Of a stretch of 64,000 nucleotides of DNA, positions 37,675 through 64,000 are shown one piece after another (within the stretch, counting starts at the first letter, position 1; each line of letters starts with the position of its first letter). The stretch spans positions 7,319 through 71,318 of the forward strand of contig JAOUMY010000010.1 in the NCBI GenBank assembly GCA_029881255.1. The letters are read 5' to 3'. Made by a program: the position numbers and the translations under genes. Source of the stretch: Gammaproteobacteria bacterium. GTDB lineage: Bacteria; Pseudomonadota; Gammaproteobacteria; S012-40. The notes beneath the pieces were generated by a model, which saw nothing but the letters and a program-made list of their open reading frames with translations, did not search any database and had not been told where the DNA came from.

Positions 37675-38745
37675 TTAATTATTCAATTGCTGAAACAACA
37701 ACATGACGTCCTTATGATTCTCTATTCGAGCAAGATCAATCGGCAGTTCACCTTGTTTGTTGCGTACATTGATATCGATACCAGCGTTGATGAGTTCAAA
37801 GGCAATTTGCCGGCTGCCATGTCTTGCTGCCAGATGTAGAGCTGTATTTCCGAGCCTGTTGCGTGCGTGAATGTCTATTCCTTCTTTGATAAGTATTTTG
37901 GCGGTTTCAATTTGTCGGTTGGCGGCGGCGAGGTGCAAAGCGGTGTTGCCCTGAAGGCTGGTTGACTGGATATCGACTCTTTTGGATAGCAAGGCGCGAA
38001 TGAGTTCGTCACGACCTTTGGCCGCGGCTAGATGAAGCAGGGTTTGACCTTCAATGTCTTTAAGATGGGCGGTTCTGGAGCGGCTTAGCAATAGGTTCGT
38101 TAAGTCTGGATAATTAAAGTGTATGACATGCCACAGAGGAGGGTGTCCCTGGGTGTCTCGGGTGTTGCTGTCAGCGCCACGTATGATTAGCGTTTTCGCC
38201 AGAGCGGTATGACCGTGTTGTAGCGCGGAGACTAATGGGGTGTTGCCCGCCTTGTTCGTTTTGTCAATGTTTGCCCCACGCGCCAACAAAAATAAGGCGG
38301 CCTCTTCGTAGTTGAGCGAGACCAGGTAGAAAAAAGCCGTATTGCCTCGATTGTCTTCGGCATCGACGTTGGCTTTGTGATTTACCAATAGTTTTACCGT
38401 TTCCAGGAATCCACCTTTGGCAGCCCAAATGAGGGGTGTTTTTCCTTCATTATCACGTGCGTGTATATCGGCGCCGTGTTTTAGTAGCATCTGCGCGATA
38501 TCGAGATATCCACCTTTTGCGGCATACATCAGCGGGGTGCGCAAATCCTCGTCCAGGACATCGACTTTTGATCCTTTTTTGAGCAAGGCTTCAATTGCGT
38601 TAGTTTCGCCTTTTGCAGCGGCCATATGCATCTTGTCCCAGCTCTGAAAAGGCGGGGTAGCTGCCGATACAGTAGCGCTAGGCAAATGCAATAAAACCAC
38701 AAAAAACAGGGTGAAATTAGGGATTAGACTACGATTGATCTTCAT
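37675..38745 (-). CDS. Secreted ankyrin-repeat protein (about 10 ANK repeats)
   Basis: Repeated 33-aa units with the ANK signature (…G.TPL..AA..GH…V..LL..GA…). Start placed at ATG 38745 (MKINRSLIPNFTLFFVVLLHLPSATVSA|ATPP, a Sec signal peptide); the track's longer ORF reaches 38880 with an acidic N-extension unlikely to precede a signal peptide. Confidence 0.7.
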   Translation of the reverse strand: MKINRSLIPNFTLFFVVLLHLPSATVSAATPPFQSWDKMHMAAAKGETNAIEALLKKGSKVDVLDEDLRTPLMYAAKGGYLDIAQMLLKHGADIHARDNEGKTPLIWAAKGGFLETVKLLVNHKANVDAEDNRGNTAFFYLVSLNYEEAALFLLARGANIDKTNKAGNTPLVSALQHGHTALAKTLIIRGADSNTRDTQGHPPLWHVIHFNYPDLTNLLLSRSRTAHLKDIEGQTLLHLAAAKGRDELIRALLSKRVDIQSTSLQGNTALHLAAANRQIETAKILIKEGIDIHARNRLGNTALHLAARHGSRQIAFELINAGIDINVRNKQGELPIDLARIENHKDVMLLFQQLNN

Positions 38746-39025
38746 AATACATGTATGAATACTATGGAATAAGCGAGTTCCAAAATTGTCAAAAAACATG
38801 TTTATACCGTATTGTGGTTCTAATTTATTCGAGGAATCTTCCGTCCAATCGGTGCAAGATTCCTGCATGGAATCGGACATTACCTGGCGAAGATGAAATA
38901 AAATTGTAAATACTTGTTTTTATTGAGAGGGGAAGGAAATTTGCCTAAAGCGTGGCAAAATTAGGACGAAATCCTATAAATGGCTGAGAAAGAAGCAAAT
39001 TTGAGCAAAAACCGAAAAGAGTTCT

Positions 39026-41833
39026 ATGCCTGTTATTACTAGACACATCGCAGTTGTCTTATTCCTGTTACTCGCGTCCCCCGTTTTTGCTGACGAGCTG
39101 GGAGATGCGAAGAATGCCTATGGCGCCGGTGAATTTGAAGAAGCGGCGGCGCTACTGCGTCCGCTCGCCCGTGATGGCAACCCGGAGGCGCTGTATCTCC
39201 TCGGTCGTATGTATGAGCAGGGAGACGGCGTAGGCAAAGATGAACAGGAAGCGCGCGATCTGTATCGCCAGGCCGCGGAAAAAGGTCATAACAATGCTGG
39301 CCAGCGGCTGGCGCTGTTTGAAAATTCCAATAGTGGTGACGAGTCCGTCGTGCTTGAGTGGTATCTGCCTTCCGCGGAGGAAGGCGATATGGAGGCACAA
39401 TACAATCTTGGTTTTATGTACGAAACGGGTTGGGGTATCGGAATTGATGAGCGCAAAGCAGTTCGCTGGTACAAAGAGGCGGCGGATCAACAACACGATA
39501 TGGCACAACTGCGCCTTGGCATGATGTATGTCGTCGGAAAAGGCGTGGAAAAAGATCAGGATGCTGGCGTGGAGCTGTTGCGTTTGTCGGCTGAGAATGG
39601 CAACCGTATCGCGGAGATTCTTGTCCAGGAGGTTTTTGATATAGGCGATGCCAAAAAGTTGAATGCCGAAAAACTCATCAGCGGTTTGCGTCGTGTCGTC
39701 GACGAGGGTGAGAAGGAAGCATTACGGACATTGAATGCCAGCCTAGACCGAGCCCGGTCACGCAATAGAAAACAGGAACGAGAGGCCGAGCCTGCGAAAG
39801 AGGACACACGTCGCGATACGCGGGTCTTGAACGAGCGTCAGCCAGTCGAAAGTGATGAGCGCTTGAGCTCGGCACAGCTCAATATTGCACGAGCGCTGGA
39901 CAAGGGGACTGGCGTGCCTGAAAACGAAGCCGAAATGGTGCGCTGGTATATATCCGCCGCTCGCCAGGGTAACGCCGATGCCCAGTTTAACCTGGGTGTG
40001 CTCTATATGCAGGGACGCGGTGTAAATCGAGATACTCAGGAGGGCTTGCGCTGGTTTAATGCCGCAGCCAGTCAGGGACACCAACTGTCAAAAGACTATC
40101 TTCAGCTGTGGAACAATGACCCAGATAATTCCTCCCTGGGTGGATCAATTGCGGTAACATGGCTGAAAGAAAATGCCCGCAACTGGGATCTCGAAAGCCT
40201 GTTTCTACTAGGGCAGATTTACGAGATGGGACGCGGGGTTAATCAAAACTTAAATGAAGCAAAGCTATGGTATCGCCTCGCAGCAGAGGGCGGGCATCGT
40301 GAAGCAAAGCGCCGATTGGACCAGATTGGTCAAGGTGTCGCATCACCGACTACGGCTACAACAGTTATAACGACTCCTGCCGATCGGGGAGTGGGTCAAG
40401 ATTCAACGTTAACGACGGGGAAGGCAGTGGCGTCTCAGTTTGACTGGTTTTGGATGATATTAGGAGTTGCCGGTATCGTCGGCCTGGGCTCAGTCGTATT
40501 TTTTCTTTTTCGCCGCAGCGGCGGTCAAATGCCGAGTTTTCAGCTGCAGCGGCCCGCTCAGAATACTATCGGTGCAAACCAGCTGCGCAGTGAAGATGTC
40601 GATTTCCTCAAGGGGCTTTGGGATGACAAGCCTGAACCCGAGAGGCCTGTCGCAGAAGTCAAAGCCAAACCCGCAGAGCCGGCGAAAGTTGCACCGGAGC
40701 CAGCAACCAATCGAGGTGGCGCGACTGAGGTGTTCAAAGCTGTTACCTGGGGCCCGGGGGGCAAGAAAAAACCGATAATTCCGGAAGACGATATTCAGTT
40801 GCCGGATATTCGCGCCTTAGTCAGTGACGAAGTAGTGCGTGACGAAGATACGGCAGTAGAAAAACCAGTCAGTGATGCTCCTCCACCTAAGGCTGTTTCA
40901 GAGCCCACGCGAGTCAAACATGTTGCACCCCCGGTACAGACGCCTCCGCCGCGACCGCCGTCTCAGCCGACTAAGTCAAGTGAACAGGGTGCTCCGGTAA
41001 AAGCCACTGAAACCAATATATCGGTTGAGCGAGTTAGGGGCGCAGGAGAAATGAGGGTAGAGCCGCCGAGGGTCAAACCGGCAGAATCACCAATTACTGG
41101 AAAACAAACCATTTCCGCCGAGGGAATTGCTGGCACCGCTATCAGTCGCGATGCCCTGGCATCCGGTAGAGTAAAAGCAGATAACTTGTTTGACGACGGT
41201 TTTGGTATTGATCGCGAGGGCAAGGTGTTGCCAAAGCGATCTGAGTCTCAGATAAGCGAAAAGCCTACCGAAGAAGCCAGACCTAGCGGACCAATAGACT
41301 TTGCAGATCTTGATCTCCATGCCATACGCCGCGGTGGAGAGTCTGTTCGGGCGCCGGTGATTAATATTAAATCTGAAGGACCGGTATCAGCTGAGAGATC
41401 ATCAATTCCAAGTATAGAGAAACCTTCAATTGCACGTGGCACTTCTCGTGTTTCCGCCAACAACCTGGGTACAAGCACTACGCCGCCACCGCCGCCTCCT
41501 CCTCTTGAGCCGAGCACTCAGCAAAGCGCCCAGGTAACGGACATATCTTCCGGTGGCGACGAGAGTCGCTCGCTTGCCGAAGTGCATTTCAATATTGGTC
41601 TTATGTTTGCGACAGGCGATGGCGTTCCTAAAAACGATGTGATGGCGGCCAAGTGGTTTCGCAAATCTGCAGATGAAGGCCTGCCCGAAGCGCAGTTTCG
41701 TCTGGGCGAATTCTATTTAAGTGGAACTGGTCTGGAAAAAGACATCGACCAGGGTATGCAATGGATACGTAAAGCGGCGAAACTGGGACATACCGCTGCT
41801 ATTGAGTTGCTAACCAAGCGTAACCAAGCGTAA
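39026..41833 (+). CDS. Sel1-repeat (TPR-like) protein, bipartite: signal peptide, N-terminal Sel1 array, one TM helix, ~350-aa Pro/Glu/Lys-rich disordered segment, C-terminal Sel1 pair
   Basis: Signal MPVITRHIAVVLFLLLASPVFA|DE. About 10 Sel1 units (…A.YNLG.MY..G.GV..D…A..WY.KAA.QG…). TM WFWMILGVAGIVGLGSVVFFLF; PPPPPPP and PRPP tracts; final Sel1 units …AQFRLGEFYLSGTGLEKDIDQGMQWIRKAAKLGH…. Confidence 0.8.
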   Translation: MPVITRHIAVVLFLLLASPVFADELGDAKNAYGAGEFEEAAALLRPLARDGNPEALYLLGRMYEQGDGVGKDEQEARDLYRQAAEKGHNNAGQRLALFENSNSGDESVVLEWYLPSAEEGDMEAQYNLGFMYETGWGIGIDERKAVRWYKEAADQQHDMAQLRLGMMYVVGKGVEKDQDAGVELLRLSAENGNRIAEILVQEVFDIGDAKKLNAEKLISGLRRVVDEGEKEALRTLNASLDRARSRNRKQEREAEPAKEDTRRDTRVLNERQPVESDERLSSAQLNIARALDKGTGVPENEAEMVRWYISAARQGNADAQFNLGVLYMQGRGVNRDTQEGLRWFNAAASQGHQLSKDYLQLWNNDPDNSSLGGSIAVTWLKENARNWDLESLFLLGQIYEMGRGVNQNLNEAKLWYRLAAEGGHREAKRRLDQIGQGVASPTTATTVITTPADRGVGQDSTLTTGKAVASQFDWFWMILGVAGIVGLGSVVFFLFRRSGGQMPSFQLQRPAQNTIGANQLRSEDVDFLKGLWDDKPEPERPVAEVKAKPAEPAKVAPEPATNRGGATEVFKAVTWGPGGKKKPIIPEDDIQLPDIRALVSDEVVRDEDTAVEKPVSDAPPPKAVSEPTRVKHVAPPVQTPPPRPPSQPTKSSEQGAPVKATETNISVERVRGAGEMRVEPPRVKPAESPITGKQTISAEGIAGTAISRDALASGRVKADNLFDDGFGIDREGKVLPKRSESQISEKPTEEARPSGPIDFADLDLHAIRRGGESVRAPVINIKSEGPVSAERSSIPSIEKPSIARGTSRVSANNLGTSTTPPPPPPPLEPSTQQSAQVTDISSGGDESRSLAEVHFNIGLMFATGDGVPKNDVMAAKWFRKSADEGLPEAQFRLGEFYLSGTGLEKDIDQGMQWIRKAAKLGHTAAIELLTKRNQA

Positions 41834-41988: not shown

Positions 41989-42022
41989 CTAATTGACGGT
42001 CGCAAACTCTCAGCCACTAAGC

Positions 42023-42595
42023 ATGAGTCTATTTAACAAGCCCAGCACAAACAAACAGTTCGAAACACACATCAGACCGCATTTGGCTGATCTGTATCGG
42101 CTGGCCTTTCGTTTGACCGGTACGCGAGAGGATGCAGAAGACCTGGTGCAGGAGATGGTGCTCAAAGTCCATAAAGGACGTCACAAGCTACAAGAGCTTG
42201 ATAATCCCCGTACCTGGTTGGCGAAAGTAATGTATCGCATGTTTGTTGATGAATATCGCCGCGCGCAACGGCAGCCCGTACACAGTCTTGAGCAAGATGT
42301 AGAAGAATCAGAAATCCAATCAGTTTCGGTAGTTGATGCCGAGGAGTTAATCCAGCAACGACAACTTGTCGAACTGGTTGGCCGAGCTATTCAAATGTTG
42401 AGCGACGAGCATCGCATATTGATACTGATGTTCGAAGTAGAAGGGTATTCGCTTGCTGAAATGCAAGAGATTCTTGAGCTACCTCTGGGTACGTTGAAAT
42501 CCAGATTACATCGCGCGCGTCATCGGTTGCGCGAAATATTAGAAATTCACGGAACCTTTTCTGAAGCGTCCACGTGTAAGGAGCAGAGGGTTTAA
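42023..42595 (+). CDS. ECF (group IV) RNA polymerase sigma factor
   Basis: Region 2 (…LADLYRLAFRLTGTREDAEDLVQEMVLKV…) and region 4 HTH (…LSDEHRILILMFEVEGYSLAEMQEILELPLGTLKSRLHRARHRLR…). ATG at 42023; track ORF starts at an upstream TTG (41993). Confidence 0.8.
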   Translation: MSLFNKPSTNKQFETHIRPHLADLYRLAFRLTGTREDAEDLVQEMVLKVHKGRHKLQELDNPRTWLAKVMYRMFVDEYRRAQRQPVHSLEQDVEESEIQSVSVVDAEELIQQRQLVELVGRAIQMLSDEHRILILMFEVEGYSLAEMQEILELPLGTLKSRLHRARHRLREILEIHGTFSEASTCKEQRV

Positions 42596-42597
42596 AA

Positions 42598-43281
42598 ATG
42601 AGCTGCGATTCAATCAAAGATGTGATTATCGACTATGTTGGCGGACAACTGGACAGCGATAACATGGTACGGATTGAAAATCATATTAGTGATTGTGCTC
42701 AGTGTCAGCAAAGGGTTTTGAGGGAACGCGAAATTCGTAGAGCCTTGAGTGAACAGCCGACCGATGCTCCAGATAGTGAGTTTTTCGACAGGATAATGGA
42801 TGACATTGTCCGCAGTTCTGGAGGGCACAAGCATTTTGGGTTTTGGAACGGATTTGCTACAGCAATAGCGGCAGCACTATTCGCCTGGACCGTATTTACA
42901 CCGGCAACCTTAGTCAATACGGAGAACAGCGAATTAACTCAAGCTGTTGTGACACTGAACGCGCAAGTCGATCAGTTGAAAAATGTTCGGATATCATTCG
43001 ACTCTCCAGCGGATTTTGAACAAGTCAGTATGTCCTTATCTCTACCAGATCATGTGGAACTGGTTGGGTATGCTGGCGAACGAGAACTAACGTGGACAAC
43101 GACAATAAGCAAAGGAATAAATATATTAACTTTACCTATTATGGTTAAACATGAAGGAAAAGGGGTGCTGTACGCCACTGTGAGTCGCGCAGGTAAAACA
43201 AAAGTGTTTACCATCAATCTCGATGCGACTGCCAGACAGGAGACATTAATCGATGTCTCGATTAAAAACTTCAGTGTTTGA
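42598..43281 (+). CDS. Zinc-binding (ZAS-type) anti-sigma factor, single-pass membrane protein
   Basis: Starts 3 nt after the sigma gene; HxxxCxxC motif (ENHISDCAQCQ); TM helix FATAIAAALFAWTVFTPA; ~130-aa periplasmic domain. Confidence 0.7.
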   Translation: MSCDSIKDVIIDYVGGQLDSDNMVRIENHISDCAQCQQRVLREREIRRALSEQPTDAPDSEFFDRIMDDIVRSSGGHKHFGFWNGFATAIAAALFAWTVFTPATLVNTENSELTQAVVTLNAQVDQLKNVRISFDSPADFEQVSMSLSLPDHVELVGYAGERELTWTTTISKGINILTLPIMVKHEGKGVLYATVSRAGKTKVFTINLDATARQETLIDVSIKNFSV

Positions 43282-43300
43282 AAGTTACAGGGGAAGACAC

Positions 43301-44218
43301 ATGATGAAGCACACTAATTTAAATACTTTTTTCTTTGCGATGATAGGCGCGTTTTTTCTGAGTCCGGTTTCGGCGCTGGAGACGGCAGATGTCGAAGAGA
43401 TCAGCGTAAGCGTAATCGAAAGCGCTCAAGATGGAATTAAAGAATTCCGTGAACTTGCATTGCCTGCACGAGCATCGACTAGTGCTACTGAACATGCCAA
43501 AGGTTTGGAAAAAGCCAATGATGTGCGCACACGCAATGCGGAAAGATTCAACAGTCGAACAGACGACATGGAAGATGGTGTTGATACTGCGGCGACTCAG
43601 GCTGAAGAACGTAAAGAGGCGGCTATGGCAAAAGCCGCAGCAGCAAAAGCTGCCGGATTGGCAAAGGCTGAAGCAGCAAAAAATCGTGCTGAAGAACAAC
43701 GTGTCCGCGGTCAGGAGCGTGCTGAATTGGCGAAGGAACAGGCAGCTGAAGGTAGAGAGCTTGGTCAGGCCCGCGCCGAAGAGGCTCGACAGAAGCGTGA
43801 GGATGCTGAGGAGATCGCTACAGTCGTGAAGGAACAAGCAGAAACTGCCAAGGCGGCTGCACAGGATCATAAAGCTGCGGCGATGGAAATCGCAGAAACG
43901 GCCAAGGAGCAGGCTGGTGCGAACGCTGATGCAGCGAAGGACGCAGCAGAAGAGCATCGCGCAATAGCCAGTGAAGTTGCCGACCAGGCTCAAGCAATGG
44001 CAGACGATGCGAAAACCAATGCGGATGCTGCCAACGCAATTGCGGAAGAGGCCAAAGGAAATGCAGATGCGGCTAAAGCAAATGCTGACGCAGCCAAAGC
44101 CGCCGCTGGAGACGCACAGGCAAACGCAGATGCAGCCAAGGCCGCTGCGCAAGAAAAGAAAGAACAGGCTCAGACGCGCGCAGACAACGCAAAGAACAAT
44201 CGATTTTCGGCCAACTAG
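43301..44218 (+). CDS. Periplasmic Ala/Glu/Lys-rich low-complexity repeat protein (LEA-/apolipoprotein-like amphipathic helices)
   Basis: RBS AGGGGAAG then ATG 43301; signal MMKHTNLNTFFFAMIGAFFLSPVSA|LE; the rest is (A/K/E/D)-rich with degenerate repeats (…AKAAAAKAAGLAKAEAAKNRAEEQ…, …NADAAKANADAAKAAAGDAQANADAAKAAAQEKKEQ…). The long antisense ORF 43319-44152 is a repeat shadow. Confidence 0.65.
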   Translation: MMKHTNLNTFFFAMIGAFFLSPVSALETADVEEISVSVIESAQDGIKEFRELALPARASTSATEHAKGLEKANDVRTRNAERFNSRTDDMEDGVDTAATQAEERKEAAMAKAAAAKAAGLAKAEAAKNRAEEQRVRGQERAELAKEQAAEGRELGQARAEEARQKREDAEEIATVVKEQAETAKAAAQDHKAAAMEIAETAKEQAGANADAAKDAAEEHRAIASEVADQAQAMADDAKTNADAANAIAEEAKGNADAAKANADAAKAAAGDAQANADAAKAAAQEKKEQAQTRADNAKNNRFSAN

Positions 44219-44244
44219 TACAGCAGCCCTATTTTGGCCACCGA

Positions 44245-44270
44245 CCCTTCCCTCTGGGAAGGGTTTTTTT
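44245..44270 (+). terminator. Rho-independent terminator
   Basis: CCCTTCCC/GGGAAGGG stem with 4-nt loop (44245-44263) followed by T7. Confidence 0.7.
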
Positions 44271-44325
44271 ATGTCGAAAGAAAAGCGCTACAATAACGTC
44301 CGTCATTTAACGGAAGTATAAAAAG

Positions 44326-45606
44326 ATGTATTTTAGGGCTAGCATGCTCGCCATGATGCTAACAGGGATGTTTGGGTTTGCCAGTGCCCAGGGGTCAGAA
44401 GACCCGGATTACTTCCGCCTGGGCATAGACGCGTTCAAAAACAAGCAATATGCGCAGGCGATCGAACTGATGCGACTTGCGCGTGAATCAGGTGTTGATG
44501 ACGAAATCTTGGCCTTCAATCTCGGCTCCGCCTTATACCGTTTGCAGGACTATCCGTCTGCGCTCGACGAATTCTCACGTATTTCGACAAACTCCCCTCT
44601 ATTTCCTCGCGTTGAATTCAATCTGGCGTTGATCGCTGTAAAACGTGACAAACTGGATGAGGCGCGTGAGATATTTGTGCGCCTTGAGTCGCAAAACTTA
44701 CCGACACTTTCAGCGATGGCGAGAGAAATGATAATGCGTATTGACGGGGAGCAGAGTCAGTCTGTAGGAACGCATTATCTTTATGTTAGCGTCAGTGGCG
44801 GTATTGAAGATAAGACGCTAGAACCGGAAACAGGCACGCCGGGAGAAGAGACTAATGTGTTCTCCAATATATTGCTACTCGGGTCGACATCCATACTGCC
44901 ATCCCTTATTCGTCACGCCAGTGCCGAAGTCACGATGTTTGGTTTGGTGAACATGCGGCATCAAGAATACGATATCGATATGTTAAATGTGGATCTGGAG
45001 AAGTCCTTTCGCTTTTCAAACGTGTCATTAAAAATTGCACCAGGCGTTGGCGCTATGGGGATGGGCTACAAGCCGTATAGTGGAGACTTGCATATTGGAA
45101 CGGAAGCGAAAATTTCGATCGCAGATATCCTTGATATAAAACCAAGGTATAGTTTTTCGCGTATACAGCACATGTCGGACAATTCTGCGGTTTCCGGGAC
45201 TCAACAAAAAGTCGGTATTCAAACACAATCCGATTTGGAAGAAATACGGCTGCAAGCAGATGTCGTACTTGAGTCCAATAATCGTAATGATACTTCAGAC
45301 ACAACATATCGTATCTATTCACCGAAACGTATTACGGCCCAAGTTGATATTCAATTATTTCGCGAAAGACGGGCATCGCCGAAGTTTATGTTGGAATGGC
45401 GCATAAGTGACTATCCAGCAGTCTCTCACGAGAATCAGCGCAGAGACCAGCGAATCAGGTTCAGGAATGTATCAAATATAAAAATAAATCAGTGGTTAAC
45501 TGCAGTTGCCGATGTCTCGTACACAGAGAATAGCTCATCTCCAAAGACTTCTTTCTCATATAATAGATGGGAGTTTGTTCTCGGGCTCGAGGGAATGTAT
45601 TACTGA
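44326..45606 (+). CDS. Outer-membrane protein: N-terminal periplasmic TPR region + C-terminal beta-barrel (architecture like Slam/DUF560 surface-lipoprotein translocators)
   Basis: Signal MYFRASMLAMMLTGMFGFASA|QGS; ~130 aa of TPR-like helices (…YAQAIELMRLARESG…LGSALYRLQDYPSALDEF…); then ~290 aa of alternating-hydrophobic beta pattern ending …WEFVLGLEGMYY (terminal aromatic). Confidence 0.45.
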   Translation: MYFRASMLAMMLTGMFGFASAQGSEDPDYFRLGIDAFKNKQYAQAIELMRLARESGVDDEILAFNLGSALYRLQDYPSALDEFSRISTNSPLFPRVEFNLALIAVKRDKLDEAREIFVRLESQNLPTLSAMAREMIMRIDGEQSQSVGTHYLYVSVSGGIEDKTLEPETGTPGEETNVFSNILLLGSTSILPSLIRHASAEVTMFGLVNMRHQEYDIDMLNVDLEKSFRFSNVSLKIAPGVGAMGMGYKPYSGDLHIGTEAKISIADILDIKPRYSFSRIQHMSDNSAVSGTQQKVGIQTQSDLEEIRLQADVVLESNNRNDTSDTTYRIYSPKRITAQVDIQLFRERRASPKFMLEWRISDYPAVSHENQRRDQRIRFRNVSNIKINQWLTAVADVSYTENSSSPKTSFSYNRWEFVLGLEGMYY

Positions 45607-45611
45607 TTATT

Positions 45612-46964
45612 CTATGGTTCGCCGTGTTTGGTTTCCACCTGGATACCTATTTTTTTCAGGAAAGGTGTCGGTAATATACCCCCAGCGCTGACGATAACGG
45701 CTTGGTTTGGAATTTCCATGACTTCGCCTTCCTGTTCGATAACAACAGAGTCTTCTTTTATTTCTTTCACATTGGAATTGAGAAGTACGCTTAACCGTCC
45801 TTCGGCTTCCTGGGCAGCGACTTTTTCACGATTTTTTTCTGCCGCGCGACTAAAGGCATTGCTACGATAGGAGAGGGTGACGGTGCTTCCCTGTTCTTCT
45901 GCGATACTCGTTGCGGCTTCCAGCGCACTGTTACCACCACCCACCACCAGCACATGCATTCCCTTGTACTGTTCCGGGTCAATGAGGTTATATACGACTT
46001 TCGATTGTTGTTCTCCCGCGACGCCGAGCTTCCGTGGTGAGCCGCGTCGACCAATGGCAAGTAGTACCGCCTTAGTTTCGTATTCACCGTTGGTGCTTTT
46101 TACCAAATAGCCGCCACCGGGCAGAGGTGTAATATTTTCCATGCGCTCCTGGTAGTGGATCTGGACACCGGTTCTTTGCTCTACAGCGTTCCAAAACTCG
46201 AGCAAGGCTTCTTTGTGAGTCTGGTTTATTTTAATCTTTCCGACAATGGGTAACTCCATCGGCTGAGTCATAACCAGTTTACCGCGAGGAAAGTTAAAAA
46301 CGGTTCCGCCAAGAGAGTCCTGCTCGATCGTCACGTAGCGTAAGCCAGATTCGAGTGCGCCCAGGCTTGCAGAAAATCCCGCTGGACCTGCCCCCACGAT
46401 GACGACATCAATTTCCGGTCCGCTAACCGAAGGTAAATATTGCTTGATGTAATCCATTGCTTCTCGCCCCTGAGTCACGGCATTACGTATTAGTCCCATG
46501 CCGCCAAGTTCTCCCGCGATAAACAGGCCTTGCATATTGGTTTCGAAATTGGGCTTGAGTGTTGGGATCTCTACACCGCGTTTTTCTGTGCCAAAAACCA
46601 GAGTGATTGCATCAAGAGGACAGGCAGCTTTACACGCGCCGTGCCCTATGCAATGTGTGGGATTAATTAGTTTCGCTTTTTCTTCGATTAGCCCTAGCAC
46701 GCCACCTTCAGGGCAGGCGGTAACACAGGCTCCACAGCCTATGCATACATTGGGATCAATTATGGGATGTAGAGATGCGGGTTCCGTCAAACCGGCTTCT
46801 TGAACCTTGATATAGGTTTCCAGGCTTTGCTCACTGACGGTGTCACGGCCACGTTTATAGATATAAAAGATGATCGCGATGGGAACGCCGTAAATAAGCG
46901 CATCAACAACATAGGTAGTGAAGGTGGTCCAGATTATGGTGATGAAATCGAAAATTATCTGCAT
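45612..46964 (-). CDS. Membrane-anchored 2x[4Fe-4S] ferredoxin domain fused to FAD/NAD(P)-binding oxidoreductase (thioredoxin-reductase-like fold)
   Basis: N-terminal TM segment (MQIIFDFITIIWTTFTTYVVDALIYGVPIAIIFYIY). Two CxxCxxCxxxCP motifs (CIGCGACVTACP, CIGHGACKAACP). Dinucleotide-binding motifs VVIVGAGPAGFSASL and VLVVGGGNSALEAATSIA. ATG at 46964; track's TTG start at 47018 has no RBS. Confidence 0.65.
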   Translation of the reverse strand: MQIIFDFITIIWTTFTTYVVDALIYGVPIAIIFYIYKRGRDTVSEQSLETYIKVQEAGLTEPASLHPIIDPNVCIGCGACVTACPEGGVLGLIEEKAKLINPTHCIGHGACKAACPLDAITLVFGTEKRGVEIPTLKPNFETNMQGLFIAGELGGMGLIRNAVTQGREAMDYIKQYLPSVSGPEIDVVIVGAGPAGFSASLGALESGLRYVTIEQDSLGGTVFNFPRGKLVMTQPMELPIVGKIKINQTHKEALLEFWNAVEQRTGVQIHYQERMENITPLPGGGYLVKSTNGEYETKAVLLAIGRRGSPRKLGVAGEQQSKVVYNLIDPEQYKGMHVLVVGGGNSALEAATSIAEEQGSTVTLSYRSNAFSRAAEKNREKVAAQEAEGRLSVLLNSNVKEIKEDSVVIEQEGEVMEIPNQAVIVSAGGILPTPFLKKIGIQVETKHGEP

Positions 46965-47043
46965 ATAGGGATCAATATATAACCATTTGGCTTGGACATG
47001 GCGGACAAAGAAGTCCAAATGGAGTAATAACTGGTGCGACCTT

Positions 47044-47382: not shown

Positions 47383-48378
47383 ATGGGAATACTTACAGAC
47401 TTGCCTGAAGCAGGCAAGATTTTGGCGCGTCTGAAATTTATAAGACGTAACGCAGGCAAGTCCGGATCGGGGGAAGGGCGAGCGAGTAGTGTTAAAGAGG
47501 ATGCGATACCTGAAACCGTGATACAGGAAGACAACAAAAAGTTTGGCCGTGAGGCGAAAATCGTTACCACAATATTTGCGGTGCTTGTCGCCGTACTATT
47601 GGTAACGTGGTATAGCTGGCGGGATGAGTATCTGATGAATGCTGAGGATCTGATCTATAACATGGGTCTGATCGGTGGCATCATGATGCTGTTGCAATTC
47701 GTCTATTCCATGCGCAAGCGTGTCGACAAGATGCGCCGTTGGGGCAATCTCCGTTTTTGGTTTCTGTTTCATACCTTCATTGGTTTGTCAGCGCCAACCA
47801 TCATTGTTATCCACAGCCGATTTAGTATTGAGTCCGTCAATGGAGGCGTCGCGTTTTTCTCGATGTTGCTAGTGGTGATTAGCGGTATCGTTGGGCGCTA
47901 CCTCTACAGCCAGGTCAACTTTGATCTAAAAACGGCGCGTCAGGAATTGAAGGAATTGCATCAAACCGTACATGCGGGCGTGTTACAGCACCATCCTGAT
48001 CAACTTCGCGAAATCGAGAATATGCTGAAGCTGTTTATGCTGCACGCATTCGCTAATTCGCACGGTGTGATTCATGCATTTTCTCGGGCGTTTGGGGTGA
48101 GTATCCGGTCTCGACAGTTGTACTGGGCGCTGATTCAGATGCGCCAGATGTCTGCCCCTGGACGAAACGATGGTGCAACGATGGCAATGGACGGAACGCC
48201 AGTGTTTGACAGGGAAGAGCGACGATTACTCAGGATTTATCTCAAGTCGCTGACAAAACTGGCCCGTTACAATGCTTTTAAACATCTGTTTAGTCTGTGG
48301 CGTATCGGACACGTGCCCGTCATCTATTTACTATTGATTACTGGTTTGGCACATGTATTAGCCGTGCACATGTATTGA
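47383..48378 (+). CDS. Integral membrane protein (5 TM), conserved His residues in TM3 and TM5; candidate b-type cytochrome/quinone-interacting subunit
   Basis: RBS GGGAAGGGGA before ATG. TM helices IVTTIFAVLVAVLLVTWY, LIYNMGLIGGIMMLLQFVY, FWFLFHTFIGLSAPTIIVIH, VAFFSMLLVVISGIVGRYLY, HVPVIYLLLITGLAHVLAVHMY. No Pfam-level assignment possible by eye. Confidence 0.5.
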   Translation: MGILTDLPEAGKILARLKFIRRNAGKSGSGEGRASSVKEDAIPETVIQEDNKKFGREAKIVTTIFAVLVAVLLVTWYSWRDEYLMNAEDLIYNMGLIGGIMMLLQFVYSMRKRVDKMRRWGNLRFWFLFHTFIGLSAPTIIVIHSRFSIESVNGGVAFFSMLLVVISGIVGRYLYSQVNFDLKTARQELKELHQTVHAGVLQHHPDQLREIENMLKLFMLHAFANSHGVIHAFSRAFGVSIRSRQLYWALIQMRQMSAPGRNDGATMAMDGTPVFDREERRLLRIYLKSLTKLARYNAFKHLFSLWRIGHVPVIYLLLITGLAHVLAVHMY

Positions 48379-52949: not shown

Positions 52950-55900
52950 ATGGGGAAGGGGACGACTTTGTTCACCGAATTGGTGAAGCGCCCGCATTTC
53001 GGCTTTGCGCTTTACCCGCCTTTAGGCTTTATTTTTCTCCGAAAACTGTTAGTGGCAGTTGCAATGCCTGTTTTTTTGGCCTTGCTTATGTCGCTTGCTC
53101 CAGGCGTTGTATCGGCCGACGAAATCGTTGTTCCTGCGGATTTTGACCACAATGCCACTGGCTTTCCACTACAAGGCCAGCATGAACGCATCCGCTGCGA
53201 ATTTTGCCATAGAAACGAAGTTTTCCGCGGCACGCCAGTCAAATGCGATGCGTGCCATAACGATATCATCGCCCCCGGAAAACACGCCAAGCACATCCCT
53301 ACGCTGGAGCAATGTAGCGACTGCCATGTGCCCTCGGGGTTTGATATCTCCGCGCGCATGGATCACTCCCGTATTACGCGGCCTTGTGGCGCCTGCCACA
53401 ACGGCAATCTTGCCCAAGGTAAAACCGTCAATCATATACCCACCAATGAAACCTGTGATACCTGCCATACCACAGGCATTGCATGGAGCCCAAGTCTGTT
53501 CGATCACGTTGGTATTGTTGATGGGTGTCTGTTATGTCACAACAGCGTAAATGCGCGCGGCAAAGGCATGGGCCACATACTGGTGCAGGATGAATGTCAG
53601 GCCTGTCACACGACGCAGTTGTGGAGTGTGCCGTCCAATAGCGTCAATCATAACTTTGTAATCGGAAGCTGTGAGAGCTGTCATAACGGTGCCGTTGCCT
53701 CAGGAAAACCGGCTACGCATATCCCAACCACAGATTCCTGTGATACTTGCCACAAAGACATCGGCCGTAGTTGGCATAGTCAGGCAGGCTTTACAGAATT
53801 GCATGCGATGTTAACCGAAGGATGTCCCTTGTGTCATACCGGGGTTAGCGCGCGCGGAAAAACTATTGATCACATATTGTCGAGCGAACGCTGTGAGTCG
53901 TGTCATACCCCCACCAGTAGTTCATTTTTGGTGTTGCGTAATCCCAAACCAGACCACGCAGAAATCGTAGGGAGCTGCGTCAACTGTCATAACAACAGTC
54001 GCTCGGTTGGTAAGAATATCACTCACATCAACAGTACGAATCAATGTCAAGCCTGCCACGAAATCGTGACTTTCAGCATTGTTCCGAAAGTGGATCACAA
54101 TGAAGTCCTGGGAGTGTGCGGTGCTTGCCATAATAACGTGATTGCAACCGGTAAGGGGCCGAACCACATAGCGACACAAGAGGCGTGTGATGTATGCCAT
54201 GCAACCACGGCCTGGTTACCTACACAGTTCGATCACTCAAATTTTGATACCAGTAATTGCCAGAGTTGTCACAATGGCTTCCAGGCTACGGGCAAACAAA
54301 CGGGACACATCGCATCGACAGAAAAATGCGATGCCTGCCATACCACAGGTGTGTCGTGGACGGTATTGTTAGTAGATCACACGCAGACGCTTGGTGATAC
54401 CTGCGAGACGTGTCACAACAATGTTCTCGCTCGTGGTAAAGGACCTACGCATATCATTACGCAACAGGACTGCGGAATATGTCACACCCCCAACACTCCC
54501 TGGTTACAGAATGCGTTTGATCACCAGGGCGTAAGTGGTAATTGCGCGACATGTCATAACGGCTTGCTTGCTCGCGGCAAGTCACAGTCACACATATCGT
54601 CAACGGATGTGTGTGAAGCGTGTCATGCAATTGGAAACTGGGCCCCGTTGACGGTGGATCATACAGAAGTTGTAGGTGGGTGTGTCAATTGTCACAACGG
54701 CGCAATATCCACTGGAAAAAATAACGGACATATCAGTACCAGTAATGAATGTGGCGCTTGCCATAGTACGACGCAATGGAAACCTGCCGTACGCGTTGAT
54801 CACAATGAGGTGCAGGGAAAATGCGAAAGCTGTCACAATGGAAAAGTGTCACAGGGTAAAGATCTGCAGCACATCCTTTCCACAGGTGAATGTAACGCGT
54901 GTCACAATACTACGCAGTGGACTCCCGCCATTACTGTTGATCATCATGAGGTGATTGGCGAATGTGCCACGTGTCACAATGGCACGATTGCGCGAGGAAA
55001 GGGGGCGCAACATGTGCCCACGACTGAAAATTGTTCCGCATGTCACTCGACTACATTGTGGCAGCCAGTCACCAAGGTCGACCACTCTGAAATCGCTGAA
55101 AGCACAAGTTGCTTTGAATGTCACAACGGTGTATTGGCTCAAGGTAAATCCACGCTGCATATCGCTTCAACAAATGCTTGCGAAGCGTGTCACCTGGTCG
55201 CCGCGTGGATGCCTGCAAAATTTGTCGATCATAATGAGGTTTTGGGCAATTGTGTTACTTGTCACAACGGTGTTGTGACTAGAGGAAAATCTGCGTACCA
55301 CGTGAAAAGCACTGATGACTGTGACGGATGCCATAGCGTTACGGAGTGGTCGCCTGCAAAATTTGTCGATCATGAATTCATTCTTGGAACATGTGACGTT
55401 TGTCATAATGGCAGCATTGCAAGAGGCAAAGGTACTCTCCACTTTAATACGTCGAATACGTGCGAAGCCTGTCATTCAGTTACGCTTTGGACGCCAGTGA
55501 TTACAGTGGATCATAGTCAGGTGATTGGAAGTTGTTTTTCCTGCCACAACAACAATCCTGTACCTGGCAAAAGCAGACTACATATTGCGACCACTGATCT
55601 TTGCGAGGCCTGTCATAACACCACATCGTGGACGCCGGCAACAACAGTGGATCACAGTGAAGTTATTGGTGAATGCCAGAGCTGTCACGGACAGGGAGGG
55701 CGCGCCGCGGGTAAGAATCCTGGACACATGCAAACGACAGATGTGTGTGGAGCGTGTCATTTCACAACAGCATGGAAGCCAGTAGTGAGTGTCGATCACA
55801 AACAAGTTCTGGGGGAGTGCGAGACTTGCCACAATGGAGATATTGCCATTGGAAAAAATCCTGCGACGCATATTCTATCTTCCGATCAGTGTTCTGCCTG

Positions 55901-56498
55901 TCATATCACCAGTACCTGGATAACCATACGTGTCGATCATACGCAGGTCTTGGGGGCATGTGTTGATTGCCACAATATGCCTGTGCAACATATCAATACC
56001 ACCAATCTGTGCGTTGAATGTCACTCCACGACACGTTGGAGTCCAGTCGTACTAGTGGATCATGCTCAGGTGAATGGCGTGTGTTCCTCCTGCCATAATT
56101 TACCCGCAGGACATATTGCGTCGACCAATGTTTGTGATGCCTGCCATAACACCACGCGCTGGCGGCCAACAGTGGCTGTAGATCATGCCCAGGTATTGGG
56201 ATCGTGTGCCGATTGCCATTTTCTGCCGGCCTTTCACATTACCGCCACGACAGCATGTGATGCTTGTCATAGAACCGAATCCTGGGTTCCTTTTACTGTT
56301 GATCACAATGAAGTATTGGGATCATGTGAAAGCTGTCACCCAGCACCCGGTGACCACCTCGCCGCTGGCGTAACAAACAATTGTCAGAACTGCCATTCAA
56401 CAACGACCTGGACAGGTGCTACTAGTCCACTTCCCGGGGCAGCTGGCGCGAGCGTGTCGGGAGTATCGGCAACTGCGGCTGGTGGTGGTCATATGTAA
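52950..56498 (+). CDS. Giant multiheme cytochrome c with 47 CxxCH motifs, built from ~27-aa tandem repeats (candidate extracellular/outer-surface electron conduit)
   Basis: 1182-aa ORF; signal peptide (alt. start ATG 53064: MPVFLALLMSLAPGVVSA|DE). 47 CxxCH counted by eye. Near-periodic unit C-x-x-C-H-(N/T)-x5-7-W-x-P-x4-(V/F)-D-H-x-(E/Q)-V-x-G-x-C-x-x-C-H-N-G-x2-A-x-G-K-x3-H-I-x-(T/S)-x3-C. No TM segment after the signal. Confidence 0.85.
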   Translation: MGKGTTLFTELVKRPHFGFALYPPLGFIFLRKLLVAVAMPVFLALLMSLAPGVVSADEIVVPADFDHNATGFPLQGQHERIRCEFCHRNEVFRGTPVKCDACHNDIIAPGKHAKHIPTLEQCSDCHVPSGFDISARMDHSRITRPCGACHNGNLAQGKTVNHIPTNETCDTCHTTGIAWSPSLFDHVGIVDGCLLCHNSVNARGKGMGHILVQDECQACHTTQLWSVPSNSVNHNFVIGSCESCHNGAVASGKPATHIPTTDSCDTCHKDIGRSWHSQAGFTELHAMLTEGCPLCHTGVSARGKTIDHILSSERCESCHTPTSSSFLVLRNPKPDHAEIVGSCVNCHNNSRSVGKNITHINSTNQCQACHEIVTFSIVPKVDHNEVLGVCGACHNNVIATGKGPNHIATQEACDVCHATTAWLPTQFDHSNFDTSNCQSCHNGFQATGKQTGHIASTEKCDACHTTGVSWTVLLVDHTQTLGDTCETCHNNVLARGKGPTHIITQQDCGICHTPNTPWLQNAFDHQGVSGNCATCHNGLLARGKSQSHISSTDVCEACHAIGNWAPLTVDHTEVVGGCVNCHNGAISTGKNNGHISTSNECGACHSTTQWKPAVRVDHNEVQGKCESCHNGKVSQGKDLQHILSTGECNACHNTTQWTPAITVDHHEVIGECATCHNGTIARGKGAQHVPTTENCSACHSTTLWQPVTKVDHSEIAESTSCFECHNGVLAQGKSTLHIASTNACEACHLVAAWMPAKFVDHNEVLGNCVTCHNGVVTRGKSAYHVKSTDDCDGCHSVTEWSPAKFVDHEFILGTCDVCHNGSIARGKGTLHFNTSNTCEACHSVTLWTPVITVDHSQVIGSCFSCHNNNPVPGKSRLHIATTDLCEACHNTTSWTPATTVDHSEVIGECQSCHGQGGRAAGKNPGHMQTTDVCGACHFTTAWKPVVSVDHKQVLGECETCHNGDIAIGKNPATHILSSDQCSACHITSTWITIRVDHTQVLGACVDCHNMPVQHINTTNLCVECHSTTRWSPVVLVDHAQVNGVCSSCHNLPAGHIASTNVCDACHNTTRWRPTVAVDHAQVLGSCADCHFLPAFHITATTACDACHRTESWVPFTVDHNEVLGSCESCHPAPGDHLAAGVTNNCQNCHSTTTWTGATSPLPGAAGASVSGVSATAAGGGHM

Positions 56499-56561
56499 CC
56501 GTTATTATGTGCGGTAGTCTTTTTACTGAGAAAAATTTAGTTAAGTTTTAAGAGGGATGGC

Positions 56562-63063: not shown

Positions 63064-64000
63064 CTATGGCGGAGTCGGCAGTGTGGGATCTGGATGACAT
63101 TCCACGCAACGTGCTTCAGTCTCATTGTGATCGAAGAAATACACCGGCTTGAATGAGATGATGTTGTGGCAGTATTCGCAGCGATTAGACACTGGTTTAT
63201 GTGTCGGTCCCTTCCCTTTTGTGATGTTGCCGTTATGGCAGTAGTAACATTCGTTGAAGAAATCGAGATGATTATTCTGGGTGTTCGGTATCCAGGTCGT
63301 GGTGGTGTGGCAGTTTTCACAACGGTCTCCGAACACGTCGTGGAAATCATGGAAGGCGTTTAGTTTTACATCATGGCAGGATGAGCAAGGTTTAGGTGCA
63401 GATATATGCGCGTTATTGAAAATGGTTCCCCAGGCGGTAATGTCATGACACAGTCCGCAGTCTGCGAAAGTTTGTGGGTGTGTGGGGGGCATGCCGGTAT
63501 TGTGGCAATTTAGGCAACTACCTAGTGCCTTGGAGTGCTCCATCTTCTGTCGAGTCTGCCAGCTAGTAATTGAGTGACAGGCATTGCAACGCGTCGAGGT
63601 AGAAGGGTGTTTGTTGCCCAGTTTCTCATACTTGGTTAAATGACATTCTACGCAGCGAGAGTTTACATCGCTATGCATGCTTGAAGGTTGCGGTACCGGG
63701 CCTAGGCTTCCTTGTGTAACTTTGTCGAACAAACTATTCCCGGGAATCAGTGCGCCGGTCTTCCACGAGGATATTTTATGGCATCTGCCACAATCCCATG
63801 CGAGTTCTCTAACGATGTCTGGGTGATTGAGCGGGCCGGTGGCAATTTCGCCATCATGGCAATCTGCACAATGCAAACCCAGGCGTTTATCAGTAACTGT
63901 GACAGTGTCTCTCGAGCTGAGACCAGCGGAATTCGTTGCTGTCAATTGAAACACATAACTACCTCTGACATCGGCAGTAAAACGAGGTGTGGCTGAGTTT
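63064..64000 (-). CDS. Multiheme cytochrome c (at least 11 CxxCH), C-terminal part; gene continues beyond window end
   Basis: Minus-strand frame is open from 64000 down to stop at 63064. 11 CxxCH motifs (CADCH, CGRCH, CVECH, CNACH, CLNCH, CGLCH, CSSCH, CENCH, CYYCH, CEYCH, CVECH) preceded by a Thr/Ser-rich beta-like segment (…VFQLTATNSAGLSSRDTVTVTDK…); Pro-rich C-terminus PDPTLPTPP. The track's Met is a GTG inside the frame. Confidence 0.8.
   Translation of the reverse strand, partial: NSATPRFTADVRGSYVFQLTATNSAGLSSRDTVTVTDKRLGLHCADCHDGEIATGPLNHPDIVRELAWDCGRCHKISSWKTGALIPGNSLFDKVTQGSLGPVPQPSSMHSDVNSRCVECHLTKYEKLGNKHPSTSTRCNACHSITSWQTRQKMEHSKALGSCLNCHNTGMPPTHPQTFADCGLCHDITAWGTIFNNAHISAPKPCSSCHDVKLNAFHDFHDVFGDRCENCHTTTTWIPNTQNNHLDFFNECYYCHNGNITKGKGPTHKPVSNRCEYCHNIISFKPVYFFDHNETEARCVECHPDPTLPTPP

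Follow-up and report, generated by a model that had tools for sequence, protein, structure and literature searches.

We report here on a cytochrome gene with 47 predicted haem-binding sites and on the genes that surround it in a 64,000-nucleotide stretch from an uncultured gammaproteobacterium's metagenome-assembled genome (MAG; assembly GCA_029881255.1, contig JAOUMY010000010.1, positions 7,319 to 71,318 of the forward strand), which is referred to as the window and to which all positions below apply. The gene is an uninterrupted open reading frame (ORF) of 1182 codons, and it is preceded on the same strand by genes for a predicted inner-membrane protein (IMP), a second multihaem cytochrome (MHC) with 21 sites, an outer-membrane protein (OMP) and a small protein, p149. 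This arrangement corresponds to that of the PCC3 clusters, which were defined bioinformatically by He, Barco, Emerson & Roden 2017 (Front Microbiol 8:1584; PMC5566968). We consider it probable (roughly 0.7) that the 47-haem gene encodes the large ('extracellular') PCC3 MHC and that its product forms the distal part of a trans-envelope electron conduit.

The 1182-residue protein contains 47 CxxCH motifs, or one haem site per 25.1 residues, and every Cys (94 of 94) resides within such a motif; a motif scan of the whole sequence gave no Cx3CH, Cx4CH or CxxCK variants. When the residues of the protein were shuffled 2000 times the number of CxxCH motifs averaged 0.62, and because the shuffles never exceeded 4 the real count is far above chance. 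The commonest residues after Cys and His are Thr, Gly, Val, Ala and Ser, and hydrophobic segments are confined to residues 19-51. The initial annotation of the gene, made from the letters of the DNA, had counted 47 motifs in 1182 residues, about one haem per 25 residues, and had seen no transmembrane (TM) segment after the signal peptide, all of which was reproduced in our analysis. A Sec signal peptide, with presumed cleavage at ...GVVSA/DE, is predicted, and the AlphaFold2 model has a helix at residues 27-47; alternative start codons exist, and the annotated start is provisional.

The spacing between consecutive CxxCH motifs alternates between 23 and 24 residues with few exceptions, and the autocorrelation of self-identity has its main peak at a lag of 47 residues (0.249, where the median is 0.061); harmonics follow at 94 and 142, and there is no peak at a lag of 27. 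The repeat unit is a di-haem module of 47 residues that consists of an A segment (24 residues, consensus C-x-a-C-H-x-t-T-x-W-x-P-a-x-x-V-D-H-x-e-V-l-G-x) and a B segment (23 residues, consensus C-x-x-C-H-N-G-v-x-A-r-G-K-x-x-x-H-I-x-t-t-e-x). These consensus segments essentially match the repeat written down in the initial annotation, and the periodic di-haem array recognized there stands, but the period of 27 residues given for it has to be replaced by 47. There are 18 full modules (46-51 residues) followed by four C-terminal modules (40-42 residues) from which the GxxAxGK loop has been deleted, with motif spacings of 17/24/17/24/17/23/19, and the protein identity of module versus module averages 41%. 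In Pfam searches the protein matched Cytochrome_C7 (10 stretches), MtrC/MtrF domain II/IV (PF22113), Cytochrom_c3_2 and Paired_CXXCH_1, and no non-cytochrome domain was found. The N-terminal cap that precedes the array is conserved in all five orthologues (the window protein and those from four other MAGs, L002, L003, L004 and L006) as well as in the family consensus. The full GxxAxGK loop is retained at most C-terminal sites in L003, L004 and L006, while L002 has the deletions of the window protein.

The array ends in a short low-complexity tail. Tails of a related kind, (Gly-run-Met)n after a Pro/Ala-rich linker, are present in L002 and L006 and in the homologues P0313, P0314, P0016, P0045 and P0095; their final residue is Met, e.g. 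...GGGMGGGGGGMGGGGGGGM, and the window version is a short one, ...AAGGGHM. No hydrophobic anchor is present in these tails of the large cytochromes, and they might serve in sorting, in binding to metals or surfaces, or as a haem ligand. Immediately 3' of the stop codon a weak hairpin is followed by a T-run (56498-56515), a possible terminator only, and scans for promoters and terminators over 46.9-58.9 kb gave counts at or below the shuffle expectation.

The segments between the motifs each hold one, rarely two, non-motif His. In total there are 52 such residues, and when three redundant ones, one before the signal peptide and the penultimate residue are set aside, 47 remain at conserved module positions, i.e. 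one per haem: the 'DH' His of each A segment, the 'HI' His of each B segment and two in the cap (H67 and H78). When 46 family members are aligned, these candidate distal ligands, like the CxxCH residues, prove either invariant or conserved to 90% or more. The 'HI' His had been proposed as a distal ligand from the outset, which is consistent with our data but covers half the picture, the 'DH' His being equally conserved. All-bis-His ligation is likely from the sequence. An alignment with MtrA (PDB 6R2Q_A, residues 156-299; E=2.7e-6) keeps five CxxCH motifs in a row, together with the 'DH' His, in register.

One conserved distal His per haem, with no obvious open coordination site, argues for electron transfer and not for catalysis. 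We have nevertheless considered that the protein is an enzyme comparable to HAO, the octahaem reductases or MccA, in which most haems would feed an active-site haem; multihaem enzymes do exist, and there is a weak match to NCBIfam HmcA (E=0.0045). However, the conserved candidate distal His for every haem, the lack of any CxxCK or Cx15CH motif and of a non-cytochrome domain, and the uniform periodicity all speak against an enzyme, which we regard as very improbable.

According to the initial annotation the DNA of the gene is itself repetitive, with TGTCACAACGGT as a recurring unit, and might drive expansion or contraction of the array. This was not borne out. Tandem Repeats Finder (TRF) reported no array over the gene, just a trivial 9-bp match; the DNA identity between modules is 45-63% (mean 54%); TGTCACAACGGT occurs only twice; the Cys and His codons are mixed (TGT 58 and TGC 36; CAT 50 and CAC 49); and the longest exact repeats are 22 bp in the DNA and 8 residues in the peptide. 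The 22-bp repeat, GCCTGCAAAATTTGTCGATCAT, which encodes PAKFVDH, is located at 55211-55232 and 55352-55373 with an offset of 141 bp, equal to one module; the modules around it are only ~59% identical, and the repeat may be a small gene-conversion tract.

The four orthologues show 42-50% protein identity to the window protein, and their haem columns are collinear with it. A comparison of haem counts among orthologues had been suggested as a way to detect repeat-number polymorphism; the counts are 47, 47, 47 and 43 in the same columns, the 43-haem protein (L002) having one module deleted and two motifs substituted. Orthologous modules are barely more alike than non-orthologous ones (0.43-0.49 versus 0.38-0.41), which implies an old array under strong constraint. 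Since the DNA modules have diverged while haem columns are kept at this level of identity, repeat-number instability is unsupported at this locus. A contingency-type gene, with repetitive DNA that frequently expands and contracts so that haem number is polymorphic in populations, would be compatible with the wide spread of haem numbers in the family, with recent block copies in the homologues P0315, P0339 and P0001, and with the one 22-bp exact repeat one module apart. Yet the missing TRF array, the module identities of 45-63%, a longest repeated peptide of 8 residues and the three of four orthologues in which exactly 47 haems occupy the same columns, the fourth lacking one module and two motifs, leave such a gene with a very small chance of being correct.

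A further explanation, raised already when the gene was first noticed, is that the ORF results from mis-assembly, by collapse or expansion of the array, or is a decaying, frameshifted gene. The source is a metagenome assembly, repeat genes mis-assemble easily, and a perfect 743-residue duplication in P0315 is suspicious. In the present case, however, the 1182 codons are uninterrupted, the DNA modules are too diverged for mis-assembly, the identical protein is present on two contigs, and collinear orthologues, haem for haem, are found in four other MAGs. Because of the last two points in particular we discount an artefact or a pseudogene almost entirely. The neighbouring genes are identical to NCBI MAG genes (OEZ43_165xx and MDH55472xx), and outside the source MAG the closest database identity to the 47-haem protein is ~47-50%.

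The assignment to PCC3, for which Slit_0867-0870 and Slit_1446-1449 of Sideroxydans lithotrophicus ES-1 are reference proteins, was made by the published motifs and by synteny. As defined (PMC5566968) in Gallionellaceae, Leptothrix and various Proteobacteria, a PCC3 cluster includes an IMP of ~300 residues whose five TM helices carry SGxxG (TM4) and Wx3Hx13H (TM3 and TM5); a periplasmic MHC (median 21 haems); a porin gene; and an 'extracellular' MHC (median 34 haems) with 22-39 residues per haem (median 26), which is of low complexity, rich in Thr, Ser, Ala and Gly, and built of tandem repeats that each have at least one haem site. In Gallionellaceae, where PCC3 is documented (PMC5566968, PMC10734462), the periplasmic MHC has 21-27 haems. 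In the window, the IMP, which is 100% identical to the NCBI MAG protein OEZ43_16550, carries WFLFH-x13-H at residue 126, SGIVG at 167 and WRIGH-x13-H at 306 and has about five hydrophobic helices (Kyte-Doolittle). The 21-haem MHC is made up of seven trihaem c7-type units of ~67 residues with CxxCH spacings of 16/18/33. The AlphaFold2 model of the OMP is confident (predicted local distance difference test, pLDDT, 87.7) and comprises an N-terminal β-sandwich, a domain similar to tetratricopeptide repeats (TPR), a β-barrel of ~22-23 strands and a helical insert; it matches outer-membrane barrels and the TPRs of YbgF/BamD and not MtrB in particular. Thus the IMP motifs, the 21-haem MHC, the outer-membrane β-barrel, the repeat-built large MHC and their synteny, by which PCC3 is recognized, are all found together in the window (Table 1).

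Table 1. Features of the 47-haem gene and of the genes next to it (positions in the window)
Feature	Position	Strand	Remarks
Large cytochrome ORF, 1182 aa	52950..56498	+	47 CxxCH
N-terminal extension and predicted Sec signal peptide (aa 1-56)	52950..53117	+	hydrophobic 33-51, then ...GVVSA/DE
N-terminal cap (aa 57-98)	53118..53243	+	FDHxxTGFPLxGxH and haem site 1
Regular array (aa 99-1003), haem sites 2-39	53244..55958	+	alternating B/A segments, 23/24 spacing, lag 47
Shortened modules (aa 1004-1144), haem sites 40-46	55959..56381	+	B segments 17-19 aa, GxxAxGK loop lost
Haem site 47 and low-complexity Ala/Gly/Ser/Pro tail	56382..56498	+	...AAGGGHM and stop
PCC3 IMP, 331 aa, putative di-haem-b membrane redox protein	47383..48378	+	published motifs matched
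PCC3 'periplasmic' MHC, 524 aa	48392..49966	+	21 CxxCH, 42 Cys; Pfam Cytochrome_C7 E=3.7e-25
OMP ('porin'), 759 aa	49963..52242	+	signal peptide, C-terminus ...FRYMF
p149, 149 aa	52285..52734	+	free-standing OMP N-domain behind hydrophobic N-terminal segment
Membrane-anchored 2x[4Fe-4S] and FAD/NAD(P)-binding oxidoreductase	45612..47018	-	divergent from IMP
Putative lipoprotein, DUF7282, 255 aa	56562..57329	+	Pfam E=1.7e-6, LLNAC lipobox-like motif
BBP2 (OmpL-like) β-barrel porin, 381 aa	57533..58678	+	Pfam E=4.5e-18, NCBI 'porin'

For p149, searches against Pfam and PDB sequences gave no match; BLASTP aligned it with residues 27-127 of the OMP at 38% identity (E=5e-16). In distant homologues of the OMP a SPOR (peptidoglycan-binding) domain stands in place of this N-domain, which suggests an anchoring role for the N-domain in the periplasm or at the cell wall.

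To place the window in its family, species-representative genomes were scanned using a 16-sequence IMP alignment (a 29-sequence alignment, A1, was too diverse), by which 312 relatives were found and 80 loci were retrieved. The recurring parts of these loci are a divergent gene for an FeS-flavoprotein, the IMP, a 21/24/27-haem MHC, a large MHC, p149 (in some cases) and the OMP; a complete 21/24-haem MHC is present in 67 of the 80 loci, both OMP and large MHC in 37, and a p149-like ORF in 15. The usual order is IMP, MHC21, large MHC, (p149), OMP; the order in the window, IMP, MHC21, OMP, p149, large MHC, is shared by 4 of the 37 complete loci. Gallionella, Gallionellaceae (L071), Georgfuchsia, Thiobacillus and Novimethylophilus are among the taxa with IMP-anchored loci, and the locus of Gallionella sp. 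L057, with 21-haem and 33-haem MHCs and an OMP, agrees in haem counts with the PCC3 of Gallionellaceae (PMC10734462). The haem number of the periplasmic MHC goes in threes, 21 (43 loci), 24 (15) or 27 (3), in 61 of 67 loci. That of the large MHC ranges from 8 to 81 across loci, and from 8 to 70 (median 22) where OMP and large MHC are both present.

Homologues of the large cytochrome number 2,435 at E<=1e-10 in a 90%-clustered database, the top 120 of which have 25-75 haems (median 53.5) at 25-34 residues per haem. An exhaustive search of 50%-identity representatives gave 3,233 relatives at E<=1e-3; together with the 312 IMP relatives they show PCC3 clusters to be widespread. CxxCH counts in the family reach 131 in P0315 (3592 residues), 129 in P0313 (3274 residues) and 120 in P0376 (3949 residues), well above the 85 that stood as the record in 2017, and P0313 has an N-terminal cap, A/B modules and a tail of the same kind as the window protein. 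With relatives that reach 129-131 haems, a number of 47 is unremarkable. Exact tandem duplications were detected in P0315 (743 residues), P0339 (312 residues) and P0001 (39 residues); the perfect copies in P0315 and P0339 arose either by block duplication in the very recent past or as artefacts of assembly, and segmental duplication is probably operating elsewhere in the large-cytochrome family.

Taken as a PCC3 conduit, the system could work as follows. The 47-haem protein would be exported by the Sec pathway, as its signal peptide predicts, and would carry 47 covalently attached c-haems, one for each CxxCH, with each haem presumably ligated by the His of its motif and by one conserved distal His. 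By homology to MtrA and MtrC, the polypeptide may be a thread round its haems, in which ~22 MtrA-like 47-residue di-haem modules would make up a continuous electron-hopping chain; if extended at an MtrA-like ~0.8-1 nm per haem the chain would, by extrapolation, be ~40 nm long. The circuit would link, in this order, the di-haem-b IMP, the 21-haem periplasm-spanning cytochrome, the TPR/β-barrel OMP and the 47-haem cytochrome, with electrons flowing in one direction or the other, and its redox partner would be insoluble or outside the cell. The 47-haem protein is predicted to lie outside the outer membrane, and the cluster is a putative mediator of extracellular electron transfer. In the initial annotation the regular array had suggested a linear haem wire and not a globular enzyme. 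A haem-dense, non-globular and periodic protein that is best taken as an electron conduit rather than an enzyme agrees with the distal His residues and with the MtrA register, but the idea is not new: haem density, composition bias, 47-residue repeats and a 'molecular wire' were all put forward by He et al. 2017 (PMC5566968), and AlphaFold models of PCC3 cytochromes were described as 'long and mostly linear' by Hoover et al. 2023 (PMC10734462).

Alternatively, the protein could be an electron store, or capacitor, in which the 47 haems mainly buffer electrons, in the periplasm or at the surface, while the supply of donors or acceptors fluctuates, and haem number sets capacity and not reach, a possibility raised by Hoover et al. 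2023 (PMC10734462). The haem number of the large MHC does vary hugely (8-81 in the loci and up to 129-131 in the family) with a partner fixed at 21, 24 or 27, and the extracellular location is a prediction only. On the other hand, a bis-His chain can both store and conduct, and neither role excludes the other; within the clade the number and placement of haems are strictly conserved (47, 47, 47 and 43) despite >50% divergence, which fits a defined length or geometry better; and the gene for the large MHC is always accompanied by those for a barrel and a periplasm-spanning cytochrome. We therefore think it unlikely that storage is the main function.

Several observations weigh against the conduit that we favour. 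The AlphaFold2 prediction for the 47-haem protein (46-sequence alignment) has a mean pLDDT of 52.9 and a predicted template modelling score (pTM) of 0.26 and is unreliable, since 47 haems dictate the fold and the prediction is of the apo form; the model shows almost no secondary structure beyond 4-residue helices at each CxxCH, and Foldseek gave no match for it in the PDB. At the B sites the distal His is positioned ~12 residues past the CxxCH ('HI') and not in the CH-x-P-H turn of MtrA, there is no alignment at these sites, and the haem geometry is thus not simply transferable from MtrA. The extracellular placement comes from published localisation predictions only, and the protein lacks a lipobox, with no secretion system encoded nearby. 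PCC3 is still called 'functionally unverified' in the 2025 literature; both PCC3 clusters of Sideroxydans ES-1 are down-regulated on Fe(II), and its large cytochrome Slit_1448 was never detected in ES-1 proteomes.

Adjacent to the cluster, and divergent from the IMP gene, is the FeS-flavoprotein gene mentioned above. Its product has a hydrophobic N-terminus, Fer4 at residues 84-140 and Pyr_redox_3/2 at 204-463 (Pfam), with GAGPAG at 209 and GGGNSA at 360. Of the 75 loci with enough upstream DNA, 59 have this gene next to the IMP gene in divergent orientation, and seven more have it elsewhere in the locus. Linkage persists in Rokuibacteriota (L037) and Nitrospirota (L043), where the identity is 53-59% and the orientation differs. 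The gene is outside the published PCC3 definition, two PCC3 papers make no mention of it in this context, and its linkage to the cluster may be a new observation. The IMP has been likened to the transmembrane domains of ferric reductases and NOX on account of its two Hx13H motifs (PMC5566968). From this likeness and the linkage of the FeS-flavoprotein to the IMP it can be proposed, tentatively, that the two form a 'split NOX' in which electrons would pass from NAD(P)H via FAD, FeS clusters and two b-haems to the 21 and 47 c-haems, instead of or besides the quinone pool, the length of 47 haems being kept fixed in this clade as a molecular ruler. Pfam searches of long IMP homologues (489-541 residues) revealed no extra domain, and no fusion of IMP and dehydrogenase that would support the proposal, which we hold to be doubtful. 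If true, it would mean a dedicated circuit of ~70 haems between cytoplasmic pyridine nucleotides or ferredoxin and a point tens of nm outside the cell, or one that works in reverse for the uptake of electrons.

Other genes in the neighbourhood are less clearly connected. Downstream of the large cytochrome are the DUF7282 lipoprotein and the BBP2 porin (Table 1), for which no equivalents were found in the nearest orthologous loci, and their membership of the system is uncertain; in P0047, which is homologous to the large cytochrome, a DUF7282 domain is fused to the cytochrome itself, a hint that lipoprotein and large cytochrome may be functionally linked. A third multihaem cytochrome is encoded at 63064-64000 on the reverse strand and continues in L001 (20115-21929); with 604 residues, 11 CxxCH motifs and a fusion of PKD/Big_9 type it looks, from its sequence, like a cell-surface protein, and PKD-cytochrome fusions are also present among homologues of the 47-haem protein (P0030, P0035 and P0069). 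Upstream, on the forward strand (41993-45606), are genes for an extracytoplasmic function (ECF) sigma factor, a zf-HC2 anti-sigma factor, an Ala/Glu-rich secreted protein of 321 residues and a TPR protein of 426 residues with a weak match to Slam-like TPRs (E=6.7e-4). These genes were not found in other loci and might encode regulators or accessory factors. Further upstream a gene for an ankyrin-repeat protein of 401 residues (37675-38880, reverse strand) adjoins one for a Sel1-repeat protein of 935 residues (39026-41833, forward strand); eukaryote-like repeat proteins of these kinds are common in host-associated bacteria.

To our knowledge, PCC3 clusters encode the most haem-rich proteins known. 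Within this group the window array is exceptionally regular, has no recent duplications and comes with four collinear orthologues, and it may therefore suit expression, spectroscopy, cryo-electron microscopy (cryo-EM) and haem-aware modelling. Local peculiarities are the rare gene order, the shortened last four modules and a haem number held at 47 within the clade.

Among known systems, the filaments of OmcS, OmcE and OmcZ share with the proposed conduit the concept of an unbroken chain outside the cell, in which haems with mostly bis-His ligation are closely packed for long-range electron transfer. They are non-covalent polymers of 4-8-haem subunits, whereas the window protein is one covalent polypeptide with 47 sites, and none of their chains was present among its PDB sequence matches at E<=1e-3. 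The c7 poly-trihaem 'nanowire' cytochromes (GSU1996 type, TIGR04257) are likewise single-chain tandem arrays of small haem modules for which a role as a wire has been proposed, and a single N-terminal stretch of the 47-haem protein (111-174) passes the domain threshold (57 versus 40 bits); their repeat is, however, a trihaem domain and not a 47-residue di-haem unit, and the neighbouring 21-haem MHC is the closer analogue.

The best PDB sequence matches are to MtrC/OmcA/MtrF (PDB 4LM8; E=3.4e-7 to 4.3e-9 over 4-5 haem sites), and the Pfam match to MtrC/MtrF domains II/IV (PF22113) has an E-value of 1.2e-30. A location at the cell surface is proposed for both, but the window protein has neither the β-barrel flavin domains I/III nor a lipoprotein signal, and it is a linear array of repeats in place of a staggered-cross decahaem. 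With MtrA, DmsE and MtoA it has in common dense haem packing, little secondary structure and a presumed function as a wire in combination with an outer-membrane barrel; the hidden Markov model for DmsE/MtrA (TIGR03508), the best match in NCBIfam, matched 10 stretches (E=6.4e-48) with 163.5 bits, compared with a cut-off of 192.2. The size is different, i.e. 47 haems in 1182 residues versus 10 haems in ~300-350 residues, and the window barrel is not of the MtrB/PioB type. We have rejected an identification as an MtrCAB or MtoAB homologue on these two grounds, the family cut-off and the type of the partner barrel. A 2026 paper on a Methylobacter bioanode was likewise rejected as an experimental parallel, the complex described there being of MtrAB type and not PCC3.

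Published PCC3 cytochromes provide the closest parallels. Examples given by He et al. (2017) are Slit_0868 and Slit_1448 of S. lithotrophicus ES-1, a 22-haem protein of Leptothrix cholodnii SP-6 and a 39-haem protein of a Riftia symbiont, with 63 haems in Amphritea atlantica and up to 85 in Agromonas oligotrophica S58 (PMC5566968). The same repeat is visible there, for L. cholodnii as a diagonal of 47 in RADAR and for the protein of the Riftia symbiont as alternating 23/24 spacing (PMC5566968, Supplementary Figure 1), and the 66-residue repeats reported for the periplasmic PCC3 MHC (PMC5566968) compare with ~67 residues per unit in the 21-haem MHC of the window. What distinguishes the window from the published clusters is the order IMP, MHC21, OMP, p149, large MHC, the presence of p149, the shortened modules and the unusual regularity of the array. 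The 47-haem gene is, in conclusion, a new and rather regular member of a described family, PCC3, the concept of which was published in 2017.

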